Origin: a virus
Taxonomy: Duplodnaviria > Heunggongvirae > Uroviricota > Caudoviricetes
Strand: one strand, 5' to 3'
Virus record (IMG/VR): IMGVR_UViG_2541047596_000003
DNA length: 64,000 nt
The notes under the pieces: generated by a model
Told to the model about the DNA's origin: nothing
The model's database searches: none
What the model saw: only the letters and a program-made list of their open reading frames with translations
Made by a program: the position numbers and the translations under genes
Shown here: positions 12,382 to 60,032 of the stretch, in pieces
Layout of the letters: every line of letters begins with the position of its first letter
How positions within the stretch are numbered: the stretch's first letter is position 1

Positions 12382-12578
12382 CGCAATAACTCCGTTTTGT
12401 TAATTAACTAAACAATTCTACCATTTTGTGATCTGTGTTACACTTTGGGCTTATACATAATGTATTTTTTGATCTATATCAACATACGAAATGATAGCTT
12501 CTGCGGTGATTTGCTCATCGGATGGGTGGATCATCACGAACAACAAATGACAGTAAAACAAACAGTAAGGTGAATACA

Positions 12579-12824
12579 ATGAAAAAACTAATTGTTGCTT
12601 GCATCTTATCAGCTCTGTCTTTTGGTGCTTTTGCTTCTGTAAATTCGACAGATAAGAGTGATGCTGGCACTGCTCAATATGGTGATACTGGCCTTGATAA
12701 CCAACGTTCGAGTTATTTCAATACTGACTCATGGAAAGAAAAACAACTACAAGGTAAAATTATTGACAGTGAATGTAATTTACCTATCCATTTTTCTGGT
12801 GTAAATGATGGGTGTAAAAAATAA
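12579..12824 (+). CDS. Small secreted protein, moron (about 82 aa, signal peptide)
   Basis: Opposite strand to tail genes; MKKLIVACILSALSFGAFA signal-like N-terminus; RBS AAGGTGA; followed by terminator. Confidence 0.5.
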   Translation: MKKLIVACILSALSFGAFASVNSTDKSDAGTAQYGDTGLDNQRSSYFNTDSWKEKQLQGKIIDSECNLPIHFSGVNDGCKK

Positions 12825-12834
12825 AAACAATGCA

Positions 12835-12866
12835 TAAAAAAAACGGGGCTTATGCCCCGTTTTTTA
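12835..12866. terminator. Bidirectional rho-independent terminator
   Basis: A-run, CGGGGCTTATGCCCCG hairpin, T-run; sits between convergent J and the moron gene. Confidence 0.65.
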
Positions 12867-57938: not shown

Positions 57939-58862
57939 ATGCGCAAGTTAACACACGAAGAACAAATTGCGGCTATTGCGAAAATTAATCCTGATGTTGA
58001 AGTGCTGGGAGAAATTACCGGAAATCATAAAAAAGTGTTATGCCGTTGCAAGGTTTGTGATCATGAGTGGTCGGCTACACCTTGCAACCTAAAACACGGG
58101 CGCGGTTGCCCGAAATGCGCTGGGAAGATGAAGTTATCGCACGAAGAACATATTGCCGCTATCGAGAAAGTTAATCCTGATATTGAAGTGTTGGGTGAAA
58201 TTATTAATGACAAAACAAAAGTATTATGCCGCTGCAATATCTGTAGTCATGAGTGGTCGGCTACACCTTGCAACCTAAAACACGGGCGCGGTTGCCCGAA
58301 ATGCGGAATATTAAAAGGCGCACAAGGAAGGACATTAACACACGAAGAACACATCACAGATATAGCCAAAGTTAACACTTATGTTGAAGTATTGGGAAAA
58401 ATTAAGAACCATAGAGATAAAGTCCCGTGCCGCTGCAAGATCTGTAGTCATGAGTGGTCTGCCAGGCCTTGCAACCTTAAAAGCGGGTACGGCTGTCCAA
58501 AATGCGCGAAATACGGTTTCCTTCGTCATGAGTATGGCAAACTTTACATCATGGTTGATGATCTGGAAGTGCCTACACAAATGAAAATTGGGGTAAGTGT
58601 TCAGGAAAATAAACGAAGAAACGATATATTAAAAAGCGCACATAAAGCAGGCGTTAGAATTCCTAATTTGCATATCGTGAAAACGTTAGAAGGGCCAACC
58701 GAAAATATACATGAACTAGAAAACACGATGCATAAGGCTTTTAGCAATTATAAAATTAACTTTCCTGTAAAATTTGATGGTAGCAATGAGTTTTTTTATT
58801 ACAGGCCGGAAGTATTCGACATGGTAGAAGAAGCATTTAAAGAGATTGTTTGCTGCCAATGA
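57939..58862 (+). CDS. Protein with three tandem zinc-ribbon repeats and a C-terminal T5orf172/GIY-YIG-like domain (307 aa)
   Basis: Three about 61-aa repeats each with CRC..C...W......C.....G..CPKC; C-terminal GKLYIMVDD...KIGVS motif. Confidence 0.65.
   Translation: MRKLTHEEQIAAIAKINPDVEVLGEITGNHKKVLCRCKVCDHEWSATPCNLKHGRGCPKCAGKMKLSHEEHIAAIEKVNPDIEVLGEIINDKTKVLCRCNICSHEWSATPCNLKHGRGCPKCGILKGAQGRTLTHEEHITDIAKVNTYVEVLGKIKNHRDKVPCRCKICSHEWSARPCNLKSGYGCPKCAKYGFLRHEYGKLYIMVDDLEVPTQMKIGVSVQENKRRNDILKSAHKAGVRIPNLHIVKTLEGPTENIHELENTMHKAFSNYKINFPVKFDGSNEFFYYRPEVFDMVEEAFKEIVCCQ
57948..58520. repeat. Intragenic tandem triplication (about 190-nt units) encoding the zinc-ribbon repeats
   Basis: Identical 42-mer CACCTTGCAACCTAAAACACGGGCGCGGTTGCCCGAAATGCG at about 58078 and 58262; third copy diverged. 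Confidence 0.6.
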
Positions 58863-58895
58863 ATATACAAAATGTAAACCGGAGGATATAACATT

Positions 58896-60014
58896 ATGTG
58901 TCAAAGAAAGATTAGTGATGAACAGCTAATCACTGAACATAACAACGGTCTAACGTATAAACAGATCGCCGAAAAATACGGAATGGCAAAACGCAACGTC
59001 GAACGCCTGGGCGCACGGTTGGCGAAACGCGGTTTAATATCCACGCGTCGCGCGCCGGGTTTTGGCGTCAATGGTGAGTCATTGCTCGTCGATAAGGATG
59101 GCAATGTGATTATGCGCTGGATTAAAACAGCCCGTGATCGCGATGAAATGGAAAGGCTAATGCAATCTGCTTGTGACGCCTTCACGGAAGAAATACCCCG
59201 CGCGGAGGCCGTGCCAGTGCCGGAAATTGATTTCCAAAAAAGCCTGGCCCTTTATCCGGTATTTGATCTGCATATCGGGGCGCTTGCTCATAAAGCTGAA
59301 TGCGGCGAGAGCTACGACACCGGGATCGCTGAGCGCGTGCTAAATGATTTCTTCGACTACGCGGTAGGCGCTGCACCGATGTCTGAAAAAGCTGTTTTGC
59401 TGTTAGGAGGGGATGTGCTCCACACTGACGGACTGTTACCAGTGACGCCATCAAGTAATCACGTTTTGGATTGTGATTCACGCTACGCAAAACTTGTTTA
59501 CGTGGCGATCCGGTCGGTCCGGCGTGCTGTAGGTAAGATGTTGTTGAATCATAAGGATGTAGAAATTCAGGTGTTATCAGGTAATCACGACCAGTCAGGA
59601 ATGATCTGGCTACGTGCGGCGCTGGCGGCTTTTTACGAAGATGAACCGCGCGTTACTGTTGATGTGTCACCTGCCATCGTCCACCACACACAGTACGGCA
59701 AAACATTCCTTGCATATCATCACGGTCATACTATCAAAAAACCTGAAAATTTGTTGTCTGCCTGCGTCTCTGACTGGCGAGAAGACTTTGGCAAGTCTGC
59801 GGCGGTTTACGCTCATTGCGGGCACTGGCATCATCAACGGCTAATTGAATCATCGTTAGGCGTTGTTGAGTATCACGGCACGTTAGCGGGTAAAGACGCT
59901 TACTCAACTAATGGCGGCTGGCGGTCACGTCGTATGGCAGCGGTGATTATTTACAGCCAGGATTATGGTGAGATCGGGCGCTTTGTTTATTACCCTGAAT
60001 ATTCCATTTTGTAA
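58896..60014 (+). CDS. HTH-containing calcineurin-like metallophosphoesterase (372 aa)
   Basis: N-terminal HTH (LTYKQIAEKYGMAKRNVERL); phosphoesterase motifs DLH, GGDVLH, GNHD, HHGH, GHWHH. Confidence 0.65.
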   Translation: MCQRKISDEQLITEHNNGLTYKQIAEKYGMAKRNVERLGARLAKRGLISTRRAPGFGVNGESLLVDKDGNVIMRWIKTARDRDEMERLMQSACDAFTEEIPRAEAVPVPEIDFQKSLALYPVFDLHIGALAHKAECGESYDTGIAERVLNDFFDYAVGAAPMSEKAVLLLGGDVLHTDGLLPVTPSSNHVLDCDSRYAKLVYVAIRSVRRAVGKMLLNHKDVEIQVLSGNHDQSGMIWLRAALAAFYEDEPRVTVDVSPAIVHHTQYGKTFLAYHHGHTIKKPENLLSACVSDWREDFGKSAAVYAHCGHWHHQRLIESSLGVVEYHGTLAGKDAYSTNGGWRSRRMAAVIIYSQDYGEIGRFVYYPEYSIL

Positions 60015-60032
60015 ACCGGAGGTAATGACATA

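Follow-up and report, generated by a model that had tools for sequence, protein, structure and literature searches.

A pseudo-palindromic sequence of about 13–17 bp is repeated throughout the prophage in the window, the whole 64,000 bp stretch of DNA analysed here, and is probably the operator of the immunity repressor Rep, dispersed over the phage genome. The prophage is a member of the mEpimmI (mEp021-like) coliphages, a new family-level group of gut coliphages defined in 2025, in which the repressor confers immunity and the operators were left open (PMC11893012). The genomics paper on this group (PMC11893012) describes no repeat, operator or this motif, and a literature search with the motif strings returned unrelated primer matches only.

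Distribution and form of the motif

All 17 sites listed in the initial annotation of this DNA are present, 12 of them as exact matches and 5 as variants with one mismatch (12422, 19803/19865, 41098, 41125 and 51077). The recurrence reported there is real. There are 14 exact copies of CATTTTGTA on the two strands of the window, against 1.12 expected from dinucleotide shuffles (maximum 5), and CCATTTTGTA is the top over-represented 10-mer of positions 12400–64000, with 10 copies against 0.15 expected. Within the 64-kb window all 14 exact copies of CATTTTGTA are in the prophage. Positions 1–12381 had been assigned to host and Rac DNA lacking the motif; Rfam matches to RalA of Rac and to the host sRNA FnrS bear out the assignment, and no exact copy was found in this segment.

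The described location at moron boundaries, tail-gene starts and early-gene starts is also correct. For intergenic counts, gene boundaries were the RefSeq calls on the identical sequence in E. coli M1/5 (NZ_CP053296). On this basis 11 of the 14 exact copies are in or touch intergenic DNA, which makes up 11.1% of the prophage (binomial p = 9e-9), whereas 0.23 copies (maximum 2) are expected when that intergenic DNA by itself is shuffled with dinucleotides preserved. AT-richness therefore does not account for the enrichment. Two exact copies are within genes (21849 and 32438):

21846–21862, minus strand: exact copy within the ParE-like toxin gene
32433–32449, plus strand: exact copy within a portal-type gene; mEp021 has the same copy

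The conserved unit is longer than the core originally noted and is pseudo-palindromic, with the form (T/G)(C/A)CA-TTT-TGTA(W)A over 13–17 bp and a fully symmetric version TACA-WWW-TGTA. One half is the consensus TGTAWA and the other is its mirror TACA or a weaker CCA form, on either side of an A/T-rich centre. Seven intergenic sites have the full TAC-N5-GTA frame, against 2.0 expected, and most sites combine a consensus half with a CCA half. On the left flank T mirrors A in 10 of 17 sites, a weak symmetric signal from a hand tally. The most conserved portion is the centre, CATTTTG. Flanks differ between sites of one genome, the element common to all sites being 10–13 bp. With the weaker copies included there are about 25 sites in 12 intergenic regions of the 55-kb phage genome, between 12.4 and 60 kb of the window, about 20 of them outside the immunity region. 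Arrays of 3–4 sites spaced at 22–37 bp are found in regions A, B and F.

Relatives have 11–15 exact copies each at matching positions, and in mEp021 10 of the 11 copies are intergenic by the GenBank annotation. Site by site, positions are conserved across more than 40 phages. The density is 0.63 copies per kb in the phage group, against 0.03 per kb in more distant relatives, and the paired-motif pattern in IMG/VR is nearly confined to the immI group. A single Rep is common to all immI phages, and among 5,426 E. coli genomes rep and the module designated D were found in one and the same set of 35. No hetero-immune relatives were found among the IMG/VR loci with the replication gene or the 35 E. 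coli genomes with the D module, all of which have the same rep.

Sites and promoters

The features of rep, of the two control regions that flank it and of the gp17 junction are as follows.

55303–55950, minus strand: rep, lambda-CI-like immunity repressor with Pfam HTH_3 and S24 peptidase matches; the proposed binder
56020–56036, plus strand: PL site AATTCCATTTTGTAAAC, centre at -16, covering the spacer and the -10 hexamer
56010–56015 and 56032–56037: PL hexamers, -35 TTGATC and -10 TAAACT
55177–55193, plus strand: PR distal site CAATCCATTTTGTATAC, centre at -41, abutting the -35 TTGACT (55174–55179, minus strand)
55155–55165: degenerate PR proximal frame TACGCCCCGTA, centre at -16, overlapping the -10 TATATT (55151–55156, minus strand)
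54498–54514, plus strand: palindromic site TACATTTTGTA inside an operon, separating the N-like gene gp17 from the gene after it

PR is the best sigma70 match within 44.5–64 kb, and the block AAAAAGTATACAAAATG at PR is invariant among 33 unique sequences. The longest word common to both control regions is TCCATTTTGTA, which at PR is the sole invariant block beyond the -35 and -10 hexamers (33 unique sequences). The register of the PR proximal frame is that of the proximal site in the paralogous promoter B+. The PL site is retained in 42 of 44 loci, and the site at 54498 is kept in most of the 44. An inverted repeat at PR, TTGACTCG...CGAGTCAA, was rejected as an alternative palindromic operator, not being conserved in relatives. 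No cro-like ORF was found in the search between rep and gp17.

The remaining sites are distributed over the rest of the prophage.

47496–47512, minus strand: F-promoter site GTATCCATTTTGTATAC, the highest-scoring, centre at -16, -10 TATACT
47560–47576, plus strand: site GACGCCATTTTGTAAAT, directly 3' of the cytosine-methyltransferase stop codon, centre at -80 of F
47474–47490, plus strand: weak site AAGAGCATTTTGTTTGC, at +6 relative to F
47530–47546, plus strand: weak site AGCGCCATTATGTGATC, fused to a CRP site
51074–51090, minus strand: G proximal site ATATCCGTTTTGTAAAC, centre at -16
51098–51114, minus strand: G distal site TACAAAATGTA, fully palindromic frame, centre at -40
41095–41111, minus strand: E proximal site GTGCCATTTTGTTATAA, centre at -17
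41120–41136, plus strand: E distal site AATGCCATTTCGTAAAC, centre at -42
24434–24450, minus strand: left arm of the D module, centre at -16 of the tape-measure-facing promoter and -41 of the moron-facing promoter
24459–24475, plus strand: right arm of the D module; relative to the moron promoter (TTTACT-17-TATAAA) the centre is at -16, relative to the opposite one at -41
21455–21471, minus strand: site GAAGCCATTTTGTAAAC, at -16 of C-, the promoter directed towards the tail-protein gene
21383–21399, plus strand: palindromic site TACATTTTGTA, 10 nt 5' of the ribosome-binding site of the tail gene 21017–21370
19825–19841: B+ palindromic site TACAATATGTA, centre at -16 (TTGATC-17-TATATT)
19800–19816, minus strand: B+ distal variant site CAATCCATTTTGGTATG, centre at -42
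19862–19878, minus strand: variant site CGCGCCATTTTGTTAAC, immediately 5' of the ribosome-binding site of gene 19889
12451–12467, minus strand: A- palindromic variant TACATAATGTA, centre at -16, promoter facing the tail-fibre gene
12417–12433, plus strand: variant site TCTACCATTTTGTGATC, fused to a CRP site, the first site of the initial annotation
12388–12404, plus strand: weak site AACTCCGTTTTGTTAAT
12482–12498, minus strand: weak site GCTATCATTTCGTATGT
58863–58879, minus strand: palindromic site inside an operon, separating the T5orf172-domain gene from gene 58896
60000–60016, plus strand: intra-operon site overlapping the stop of gene 58896–60014, with the helicase gene downstream

Promoter F is internal, between the t4 hairpin and the nutR2 boxA (47466–47483), and the predicted promoter B+ drives a cassette with a KilAC antirepressor gene. 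In nine predicted sigma70 promoters, including PL and the internal promoter 5' of nutR2, a proximal site is centred at -16 or -17, and six promoters of this set, PR among them, have a distal copy centred at -40 to -42. Centre to centre, the pairs are 24–27 bp apart in modules B, D, E and G and at PR, a spacing that suits cooperative binding by CI-type repressors (about 20–26 bp). In at least eight promoters the 3' half of the motif (TAnnnT) coincides with the predicted -10 hexamer, and the hexamers that follow CCATTTTG are -10-like at most sites (TAAACT, TATACT, TATAAA and TATATT). TG directly abuts the TAnnnT hexamer in every site and is therefore at -14/-13, rather than at the -15/-14 of an extended -10. 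The highest scores are at the promoters preceding the three nut sites (F 26.9, PL 24.2 and PR 23.7) and in the D module (23.6), these being four of the five highest-scoring sites. Orientation is mixed overall and among the intra-operon sites (plus at 54498, 60000 and 21383, minus at 58863). Inverted copies place an A-tract, AAA(A), at -40 to -43 at PR, B+, D+, D- and E-, whereas the G distal copy has the T-tract orientation. Three intra-operon sites have a common translation-initiation module of about 25–30 bp. The mEp515 orthologue of the 58863 site has a flipped A/T centre and retains TACA...TGT, and the 60000 site was found in all four genomes compared.

Some of these promoters have a companion element. 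Seven CRP-type sites (companion motif GTGAT-N4-ATCAC; TGTGA-N6-TCACA core with at most one mismatch) were found, all intergenic, against 1.4 expected; they are at orthologous places in four genomes and their N6 is variable. Five motif-bearing promoters have a predicted CRP site, TGTGA-N6-TCACA, centred at -59.5 to -63.5, a class I distance.

55976–55991: CRP-type site TTTGATGCAAGTCACA, centre at -60.5 of PL
47540–47555: CRP-type site TGTGATCCACATCACG, centre at -59.5 of F; core kept and N6 varying in relatives
51118–51133: CRP-type site, centre at -59.5 of promoter G
41139–41154: perfect CRP core TGTGATACAGATCACA, centre at -60.5 of promoter E
19778–19793: CRP-type site, centre at -63.5 of promoter B+
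12427–12442: CRP-type site TGTGATCTGTGTTACA, region A

Rep as the candidate binder of the motif

Of the readings offered in the initial annotation, a binding site for a phage-encoded regulator is the one favoured by the sequence evidence over an extended -10 element or a recombination linker, and Rep is the proposed regulator. Rep matches the lambda repressor over its full length (3bdn, E = 1e-20). Its N-terminal domain is invariant in 44 loci, and no Rep relatives came up in the GTDB species genomes scanned. The helix was compared in 80 loci encoding CI homologues, with the 240 bp upstream of the repressor gene scanned in each. The KGxxxHW helix signature of Rep is present in 58 of the 80 loci, these coming from about three lineages only. 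They have a mean of 1.93 TACA-N4-GTA frames, against 0.039 in shuffles, and 54 of the 58 (from the same roughly three lineages) have two or more. The frames, 2–3 to a locus, are placed as expected for CI operators. The 20 loci with a lambda-type or RIGNYE-type helix all have no TACA-N4-GTA frame, and the lambda-type loci show the TATCACCGC operators, a positive control. In Salmonella phage SPN9CC the CI helix is TKGAVSHWLNGRR, that of Rep being TKGGLSHWLNGRR, and there are frames at OR (TACAATTTGTA and TACGATGTGTA) and at OL (TACGTATAGTA and TACATTTTGTA, 26 bp apart); elsewhere in the SPN9CC genome TACA-N4-GTA is at chance level.

The proposed identification of the sites as Rep operators is supported by the whole-length alignment with lambda CI, by the way site type tracks the KGxxxHW helix class, and by the occurrence of TCCATTTTGTA in both rep-flanking control regions. 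It is further supported by the top scores at the nut-preceding promoters and D module, by the fixed proximal and distal geometry (-16/-17 and -40 to -42), by the immateriality of orientation, since orthologues flip the A/T centre, and by the restriction of the motif to the phage group. Several features count against it. The site centre is conserved, whereas lambda-type operators conserve the outer bases. Most sites are half-palindromic only, with a weaker half that does not vary but keeps CCA. PL and PR have one strong site each, against three each in lambda. The majority of relatives have the variants CCATTCTG or CCATTATG at PL, and the centre of the PR proximal frame is G/C-rich.

In the lysogen, Rep dimers would occupy the proximal site centred at -16 and cover the -10 hexamer. 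A second site, present at many promoters 24–27 bp upstream and centred at -41, would permit cooperative binding by a spacing like that of OR1 and OR2. Such occupancy would shut off PL, PR and the internal promoter 5' of nutR2, as well as the CRP-activated promoters belonging to the reverse-oriented cassettes and to the tail-gene blocks coming after these cassettes; the single intra-operon sites may be roadblocks or extra anchoring points. The sign of regulation at PR is uncertain, because -41 is the activating position of CI at lambda PRM. Repression at promoter G cannot be complete if lysogens express ipe from G.

A wider proposal is put forward tentatively, as possible rather than probable: that a CI-type repressor has been redeployed as a genome-wide silencer, with about 25 operators gating PL and PR, an internal nut-linked promoter, the CRP-dependent promoters of each reverse-oriented cassette and tail-gene block, and intra-operon points, so that silencing, cAMP-CRP sensing and an induction driven by antirepressor, not by RecA, would be wired together. 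The mEpimmI repressor has no Ala-Gly cleavage site and the lysogens are not UV-inducible (PMC11893012). The silencer proposal concerns a gut-prevalent phage family with hitherto undescribed operators. New here are the proposed operator sequence, the map of about 25 sites and 10 promoters, the CRP sites at five mapped promoters and the internal promoter before the third nut site. Should Rep bind them, the group would clearly exemplify a dispersed regulon under a repressor of the CI family, such regulons being otherwise known from unrelated repressors (P1 C1 and L5 gp71), and the binding would explain the silencing of a genome interrupted by many autonomous, reverse-oriented cassettes.

Alternative readings and known systems

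The sites could instead be bound by another conserved phage protein, such as Q or the HTH_23 protein beside the integrase gene, or by some host factor. The contiguous 10-bp conserved core with its A-tract resembles what monomeric HTH proteins with minor-groove arms bind, and the 3–4-site arrays at 22–37 bp spacing in regions A, B and F and the one strong site each at PL and PR are consistent with such a binder. However, in one immI phage (L159) the N-terminus of gp8 is replaced, the replication gene is different and gp14 is about one-third identical as judged by eye, with the Rep N-terminal domain and the sites the same. gp8, gp14 and the replication protein are therefore excluded as binders, since their alleles are replaced and the motif is unchanged. 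RefSeq annotates gp8 as an Lrp/AsnC-family regulator and the 5-3-5 palindrome is Lrp-like, but gp8 has no Pfam or NCBIfam match and, with the L159 replacement, was rejected. Q is expected at a single late promoter; a Q-binding element, a homing-endonuclease target and an integrase arm site were likewise dropped because each is expected at one locus only. We know of no E. coli regulator with this consensus, and the known consensus sequences of IHF, Fis, OmpR, LexA, TyrR, CpxR and PhoP do not appear to fit. A binder other than Rep would leave the link to the repressor clade unexplained, and is considered unlikely.

That host RNA polymerase alone reads the motif as part of the core promoter, with no regulator devoted to it, one orientation providing a T-tract and -10 hexamer and the other an A-tract at the proximal UP-element position, is rather improbable. 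The -10-like hexamers after CCATTTTG in most sites agree with this, and are supported as real -10 elements by the CRP sites 59.5–60.5 bp 5' of the hexamer-predicted starts at four independent promoters. The proximal UP subsite, an A-tract at about -41 to -43 on the non-template strand and upstream of the -35, coincides with the AAA(A) that inverted copies put at -40 to -43 in five promoters; for the -16 sites and those inside operons this feature has no bearing. The proposal of an extended -10 holds in so far as the 3' half is the predicted -10 in at least eight promoters, but the TG at -14/-13 is off the extended -10 register. To our knowledge, no sigma70 contact reads CCA at -20 to -18. The motif is also found 5' of -35 elements, within operons near ribosome-binding sites, and with its A/T centre flipped, so that a strand-specific promoter element is insufficient; flipped centres and mixed orientation argue for double-strand recognition. 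A promoter at the intra-operon sites, 10–25 nt from start codons, would lose the ribosome-binding site from the transcript. The same site type is found in the operator regions of related repressors, and a strict consensus scan recovers PR only.

The third proposal of the initial annotation, conserved linkers for homologous recombination that exchange phage gene modules, is very unlikely. The D module, about 70 bp, is invariant in 16 phages that have different cargo at one end of it and different tape-measure leaders at the other, in the E. coli genome H104 only the D module itself matches, and the three intra-operon sites have their common translation-initiation module. The phage encodes Erf and other recombination functions. 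Modules that stay constant while their flanks are swapped do fit a linker, but the 10-bp core is too short, the common element being merely 10–13 bp with flanks that vary between sites of one genome, and fixed distances to -10, -35 and CRP sites are regulatory features. The linker pattern is at most a by-product of regulatory-module conservation, which accounts for the mosaic boundaries. The AT-rich composition of the intergenic DNA (41% G+C) can be dismissed as the source of the motif, given 11 copies against 0.23 in the intergenic shuffles and the positional conservation in more than 40 phages.

As proposed operators of Rep, the sites can be compared with lambda OL and OR, which they resemble in having a CI homologue as candidate binder, pseudo-palindromes over the early promoters to the left and right of the repressor gene, pairs spaced much as at OR1-OR2 (here 24–27 bp apart) and one site position matching that of CI at PRM (-41). 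They differ in sequence and in the conservation of the centre instead of the outer bases, in having one strong site each at PL and PR, and in lying in 12 intergenic regions, where lambda has operators at OL and OR only; the search beside rep gave no cro-like gene. SPN9CC and the related immunity types of P22-like and Stx prophages are alike in TACA-N4-GTA and in the identical TACATTTTGTA at OL, with a recognition helix nearly identical to that of Rep and the 26 bp OL spacing. SPN9CC differs in having sites only at OL and OR, and its overall repressor identity to Rep is about 38% (from the mEp013 comparison); the literature search found no relevant characterisation of its operators. The companion CRP sites of five promoters are like those of class I CRP-dependent promoters (lac-type, -61.5), a likeness that concerns the companion element and not the CCATTTTGTA motif.

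P1 C1 is a single immunity repressor with many scattered operators at the promoters of separate operons, some of them inverted pairs. The likeness is in having one immunity repressor for operators dispersed genome-wide; C1 is not related to CI, acts as a monomer on an asymmetric 17-bp site, and its consensus ATTGCTCTAATAAATTT has no match in the window with up to 3 mismatches. The stoperators of L5 and Bxb1 (gp71 and gp69) are dozens of short repressor sites in intergenic and some intra-operon positions, with one at the early promoter; matches to the L5 consensus in the window are no more than chance would give. The sites described here are alike in being numerous and dispersed in short intergenic spaces, operon interiors included. 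Stoperators are asymmetric and have one orientation relative to transcription, whereas here the orientation is mixed and most sites overlap promoters.

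The mEpimmI prophage and the distribution of the motif

Rac and host DNA occupy window positions 1 to ~10,300, where RalA (4155–4333) and FnrS (8643–8760) are matched in Rfam. The second prophage spans ~10.3 kb to past the window end, its integrase gene (63,964–65,154, also running past the window end) adjoining dgcM (ydaM). Gene calls are those of RefSeq for the E. coli M1/5 chromosome NZ_CP053296.1 (100% identity; window position = record position − 2,672,640). The prophage is 85–90% identical to mEp021, mEp010, mEp013, mEp044, mEp515, mEp554 and MagusPhagus; these phages are the mEpimmI (immI) group, Nus-dependent, non-lambdoid coliphages of the gut that were described in 2025 as a new group at family level (PMC11893012). 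The mEp021 record runs opposite to the window orientation. The tail operon is broken up by three opposite-strand cassettes in the RefSeq annotation.

Gene layout of the prophage (window positions)
12864–17834, minus: J
19889–20663, opposite to the tail operon: cassette with KilAC antirepressor gene
21538–21965, opposite to the tail operon: cassette with ParE-like toxin
24522–25511, opposite to the tail operon: cassette with TagO-like lipoprotein
minus: lysis genes, head and tail genes
45311–46039, minus: Q
minus: erf, ssb and many small genes
54512–54802, minus: N-like gene gp17
with rep on the minus strand: terminator t1, PR and nutR1
55303–55950, minus: rep, encoding the lambda CI-like immunity repressor Rep
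from 56,256, plus: gp14, replication genes, helicase gene and HTH gene

The immI replication module exists as two or more unrelated sets of alleles (gp14, replication protein and gp8 N-terminus; the immI phage contig L159 compared with window 56256–62085), and the immunity region and helicase gene are constant across them. Amid the replication genes, 57939–58862 encodes treble-clef zinc finger, CapR and T5orf172/MUG113 (GIY-YIG-like) domains, with homologues that vary in length and content from phage to phage. This gene and an HNH gene found between gp11 and the helicase gene in mEp021, but not in the window prophage, look like mobile nuclease genes. Within the zinc-finger gene a hairpin and its tail (CGGGCAACCGCGCCCG TGTTTTAGGT) recur unchanged (58097–58112 and 58283–58298, minus), probably reflecting a repeated protein domain. 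The 375 bp non-coding gap after the replication-protein gene (57564–57938) contains no strong motif site and may hold the replication origin.

The initial annotation placed a recurrent intergenic motif at 17 positions in this prophage, and the motif or a one-mismatch variant is present at all 17. Its exact core, CATTTTGTA, occurs 14 times in the window against 1.12 expected, and no other 10-mer in the prophage is as over-represented as CCATTTTGTA (10 copies, 0.15 expected). Intergenic DNA is 11.1% of the prophage and carries 11 of the 14 exact copies (p = 9e-9, RefSeq gene calls). Shuffling the intergenic DNA by itself, with dinucleotides preserved, yields 0.23 copies against these 11, therefore the motif is not a mere reflection of AT-rich composition, which the initial annotation had named as a possible refutation. 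There are no exact copies in the host and Rac part, in agreement with the initial annotation.

The relatives have 11–15 exact copies each, in matching places, and the three local sites around rep are retained in nearly all of 44 IMG/VR loci. Motif density is 0.63/kb in immI loci and 0.03/kb in the loci of more distant phages that were found with the same replication-protein query. The inverted-pair arrangement is seen in IMG/VR almost exclusively in immI contigs. Judged from these comparisons, the motif is a real, conserved, lineage-specific cis-regulatory site. Intragenic exact copies are present at 21849–21857 in the ParE-like toxin gene and at 32438–32446 in the portal-type gene, the portal motif copy being present in mEp021 also. 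Codons 3–5 of rep (T-K-W; 55937–55945) are AACAAAATGG, a one-mismatch copy that every relative retains. Where other genes start, for example at 28543, similar CATTTTGTT copies look like ordinary A-rich start-codon contexts.

Site structure and predicted promoters

Sites within one genome have only ~12–13 bp in common, with unrelated flanks. The position matrix from 31 unique sites is (T/G)(C/A)CATTTTGTA(T/A)A(C/A), a pseudo-palindrome with a T-tract at its centre. Four exact sites are TACATTTTGTA, with TACAATATGTA, TACATAATGTA and TACGCCCCGTA accounting for three more, and the TAC-N5-GTA frame has 7 intergenic occurrences against 2.0 expected. Other sites have one full half (TGTAWA) and CCA instead of ACA in the opposite half. 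Relaxed scoring gives ~25 sites in 12 intergenic regions, with clusters of 3–4 in regions A, B and F. One window site, TACAAAATGTAAAC, corresponds to TACATTTTGTTGAC at the orthologous position in mEp515, with the outer halves in place and the A/T centre flipped. The motif strand also differs among three intra-operon junctions that have a common ribosome-binding module. This points to a symmetric binder recognising double-stranded DNA, and the same observations count against an RNA signal and against a promoter element specific to one strand.

These junctions (54474–54514, 58866–58898 and 60004–60035) have in common a ~25–30 bp translation-initiation module, TGTAAAC(ATC)CGGAGG..ACAT(T/A)ATG; in two of the three, the motif makes a minimal ATG-TAA start-stop just 5' of the ribosome-binding site. 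A boxB-like hairpin, AGGGG-AAAAA-CCCCT (54534–54550, minus), is inside the gp17 3' end, just upstream of the intra-operon motif site and outside the three published nut sites.

The best sigma70-type match between 44.5 and 64 kb is TTGACT-17-TATATT (55179–55151, minus). It is located just 3' of the rep terminator and 5' of the nutR1 boxA, and is therefore taken to be PR. Here the motif abuts the −35 hexamer, centred at −41. The block AAAAAGTATACAAAATG is invariant and the promoter spacer variable (33 unique sequences). The conserved blocks of PL are TTGA(C/T)C, 16 bp of which the first half is variable, CCATT(T/C/A)TG and, directly following, TAAACT.

Predicted motif-bearing promoters and motif positions, with the hexamer after CCATTTTG taken as the −10 element
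PL: gp14 and replication genes via nutL; proximal −16, no distal site
PR: gp17 operon via nutR1; proximal −16 (degenerate), distal −41
F: nutR2 and downstream genes; proximal −16, none at −41, others at +6, −50 and −80
G: gene starting 51038; proximal −16, distal −40
E: gene starting 41057; proximal −17, distal −42
D+: TagO-like lipoprotein gene; proximal −16, distal −41
D−: tape-measure gene; proximal −16, distal −41
C−: tail-protein gene; proximal −16, none at −41, one at +56
B+: cassette with KilAC antirepressor gene; proximal −16, distal −42
A−: tail-fibre gene; proximal −16, distal −47

The suggestion that the motif is an extended −10 element can be dismissed because its register is wrong. 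PR and B+ are paralogous over ~70 bp (55125–55195 and 19795–19870), having in common CAAAATGGATTGAY, the −10 hexamer TATATT and a downstream TCAAA(G/C)GGAAG. The proximal site of B+, TACAATATGTA, is fully palindromic; in PR the outer frame alone is left, TAC-GGGGC-GTA, with its register unchanged. A CAAGGTAAGG-like element downstream of PR and B+ is also found at PL. The D module (24411–24480) is invariant in 16 phages that differ in the cargo on one side and in the tape-measure leader on the other. Promoter F has the t4 hairpin on one side and the nutR2 boxA (TGCTCTTTAAAAA, 47466–47483, minus) on the other, therefore the third nut site of the group has its own predicted promoter. The predicted F sequence is TTGTTC-16-TATACT, CRP-dependent and directly after the t4 hairpin GGCGCTTTTCGCC (47440–47580, minus); the published description of the nutR2 region has a nut site and terminator only. 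A perfect 17 bp palindrome, ATCATTGTCACAATGAT (21430–21446), is present at the predicted C− start, in the interval between the tail-protein gene and the ParE-like cassette, where relatives have a CRP-like TGTGA..TCTCA instead.

Beside several motif sites is a GTGAT-N4-ATCAC palindrome, which is the CRP core TGTGA-N6-TCACA. Allowing one mismatch at most, the core has seven copies against 1.4 expected, all seven intergenic; four genomes retain them at orthologous positions, N6 being variable.

CRP-consensus sites (window positions)
12427–12442
19778–19793
41139–41154
47540–47555
51118–51133
52725–52740 (no motif nearby and no promoter matched to the site)
55976–55991

Measured from the predicted starts, the CRP centres are at −60.5 for PL and E, −59.5 for F and G, and −63.5 for B+. 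These are class I CRP distances, which at lac is −61.5. The register of the motif is possibly circular, the −10 hexamer having been chosen from the motif itself. The CRP sites are an independent element, and with their support it is very likely that the hexamers are genuine −10 elements and that the modules are CRP-activated promoters.

Rep as the proposed binder

There is a strong case that the motif is the operator of some protein; that this protein is Rep is less certain, yet it is the favoured reading. The longest word common to both control regions flanking rep is TCCATTTTGTA, and the sites of the three nut-linked promoters are among the top matrix scores. Rep has HTH_3 and Peptidase_S24 domains and aligns over its full length with lambda CI (3bdn, E = 1e-20). 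Its N-terminal domain, helix TKGGLSHWLNGRR included, does not vary across 44 loci. Other DNA-binding candidates, gp8, gp14 and the replication protein, are excluded by mosaicism in L159 (Logan ERR1622384). This contig has the same Rep N-terminal domain and the motif at the same places, but the N-terminal 140 residues of gp8 are unrelated, the replication protein is different and gp14 is only about one-third identical, judged by eye.

A survey of CI homologues with a 38%-identical Rep relative as query returned 80 IMG/VR loci. In the 58 with a KGxxxHW helix, as in Rep, the 240 bp preceding the repressor gene hold 1.93 TACA-N4-GTA frames on average, against 0.039 in shuffles, and 54 of the 58 have at least two. 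A typical locus has three repeats ~30 bp apart, for example AGTATACATAAAGTAT, AGTATACATTTTGTCTG and GTATACATAACGTAT. None of the 20 loci whose helix is of lambda type (GMGQS) or RIGNYE type has such a frame. Lambda-type loci have TATCACCGC operators at this position, evidence that the approach finds known operators. One KGxxxHW class includes the CI of Salmonella phage SPN9CC, whose genome is P22-like and classically organised. Its frames are TACAATTTGTA and TACGATGTGTA in the cI–cro region and TACGTATAGTA and TACATTTTGTA, 26 bp apart, upstream of N, with the remaining genome at chance level. In its symmetric form the window motif therefore has the exact sequence of a predicted OL operator, in a phage whose recognition helix, TKGAVSHWLNGRR, is nearly identical to that of Rep, differing at two positions.

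Several features count against Rep. The conserved part of the site is its centre, rather than the outer bases, and the weaker half is the conserved CCA. PL and PR have one strong site each, that of PL varying at one T in most relatives, and the 58 supporting loci represent about three lineages. Lambda CI activates PRM from −41, the position of the motif at PR, and regulation at PR may therefore be of either sign. No hetero-immune relative was found for covariation: of 5,426 E. coli genomes 35 have rep, and these 35 are also the ones with the D module.

If Rep is the binder, at −16 it would cover the −10 hexamer, and binding there should therefore repress. Pairs of sites 24–27 bp apart would permit cooperativity, mediated by the conserved C-terminal domain. 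In the back-to-back promoter pairs (D and E) one site pair would shut both directions, and intra-operon sites may be roadblocks. Lysogens of mEpimmI phages are not UV-inducible and Rep is without an Ala-Gly cleavage site (PMC11893012); for this reason the two motif sites at the antirepressor-cassette promoter B+ are of note.

Comparison with known repressor systems

No description of the motif was found in the literature searched, including the mEpimmI paper, which says of operators only that Rep021, the mEp021 version of Rep, may recognise sequences different from those of lambda (PMC11893012). What is gained here, by comparative inference only, is a map of operators and promoters, open to testing, in a gut phage family that was defined only recently.

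Nothing in the window matches the P1 consensus, and the motif is not a member of the P1 C1 operator family. The L5 stoperator family was likewise rejected, its consensus being at chance level in the window and the motif sites being without a single orientation. From the homology of the proposed binder and the architecture of the sites, the motif is best described as a CI-type operator. The spacing of the pairs resembles that of lambda OR1–OR2; lambda operators are confined to OL and OR, whereas the sites here are dispersed, like P1 C1 operators and mycobacteriophage L5 stoperators. The system is likely to be one in which a CI-family repressor has a regulon that spans the genome and is coupled to promoters dependent on CRP.
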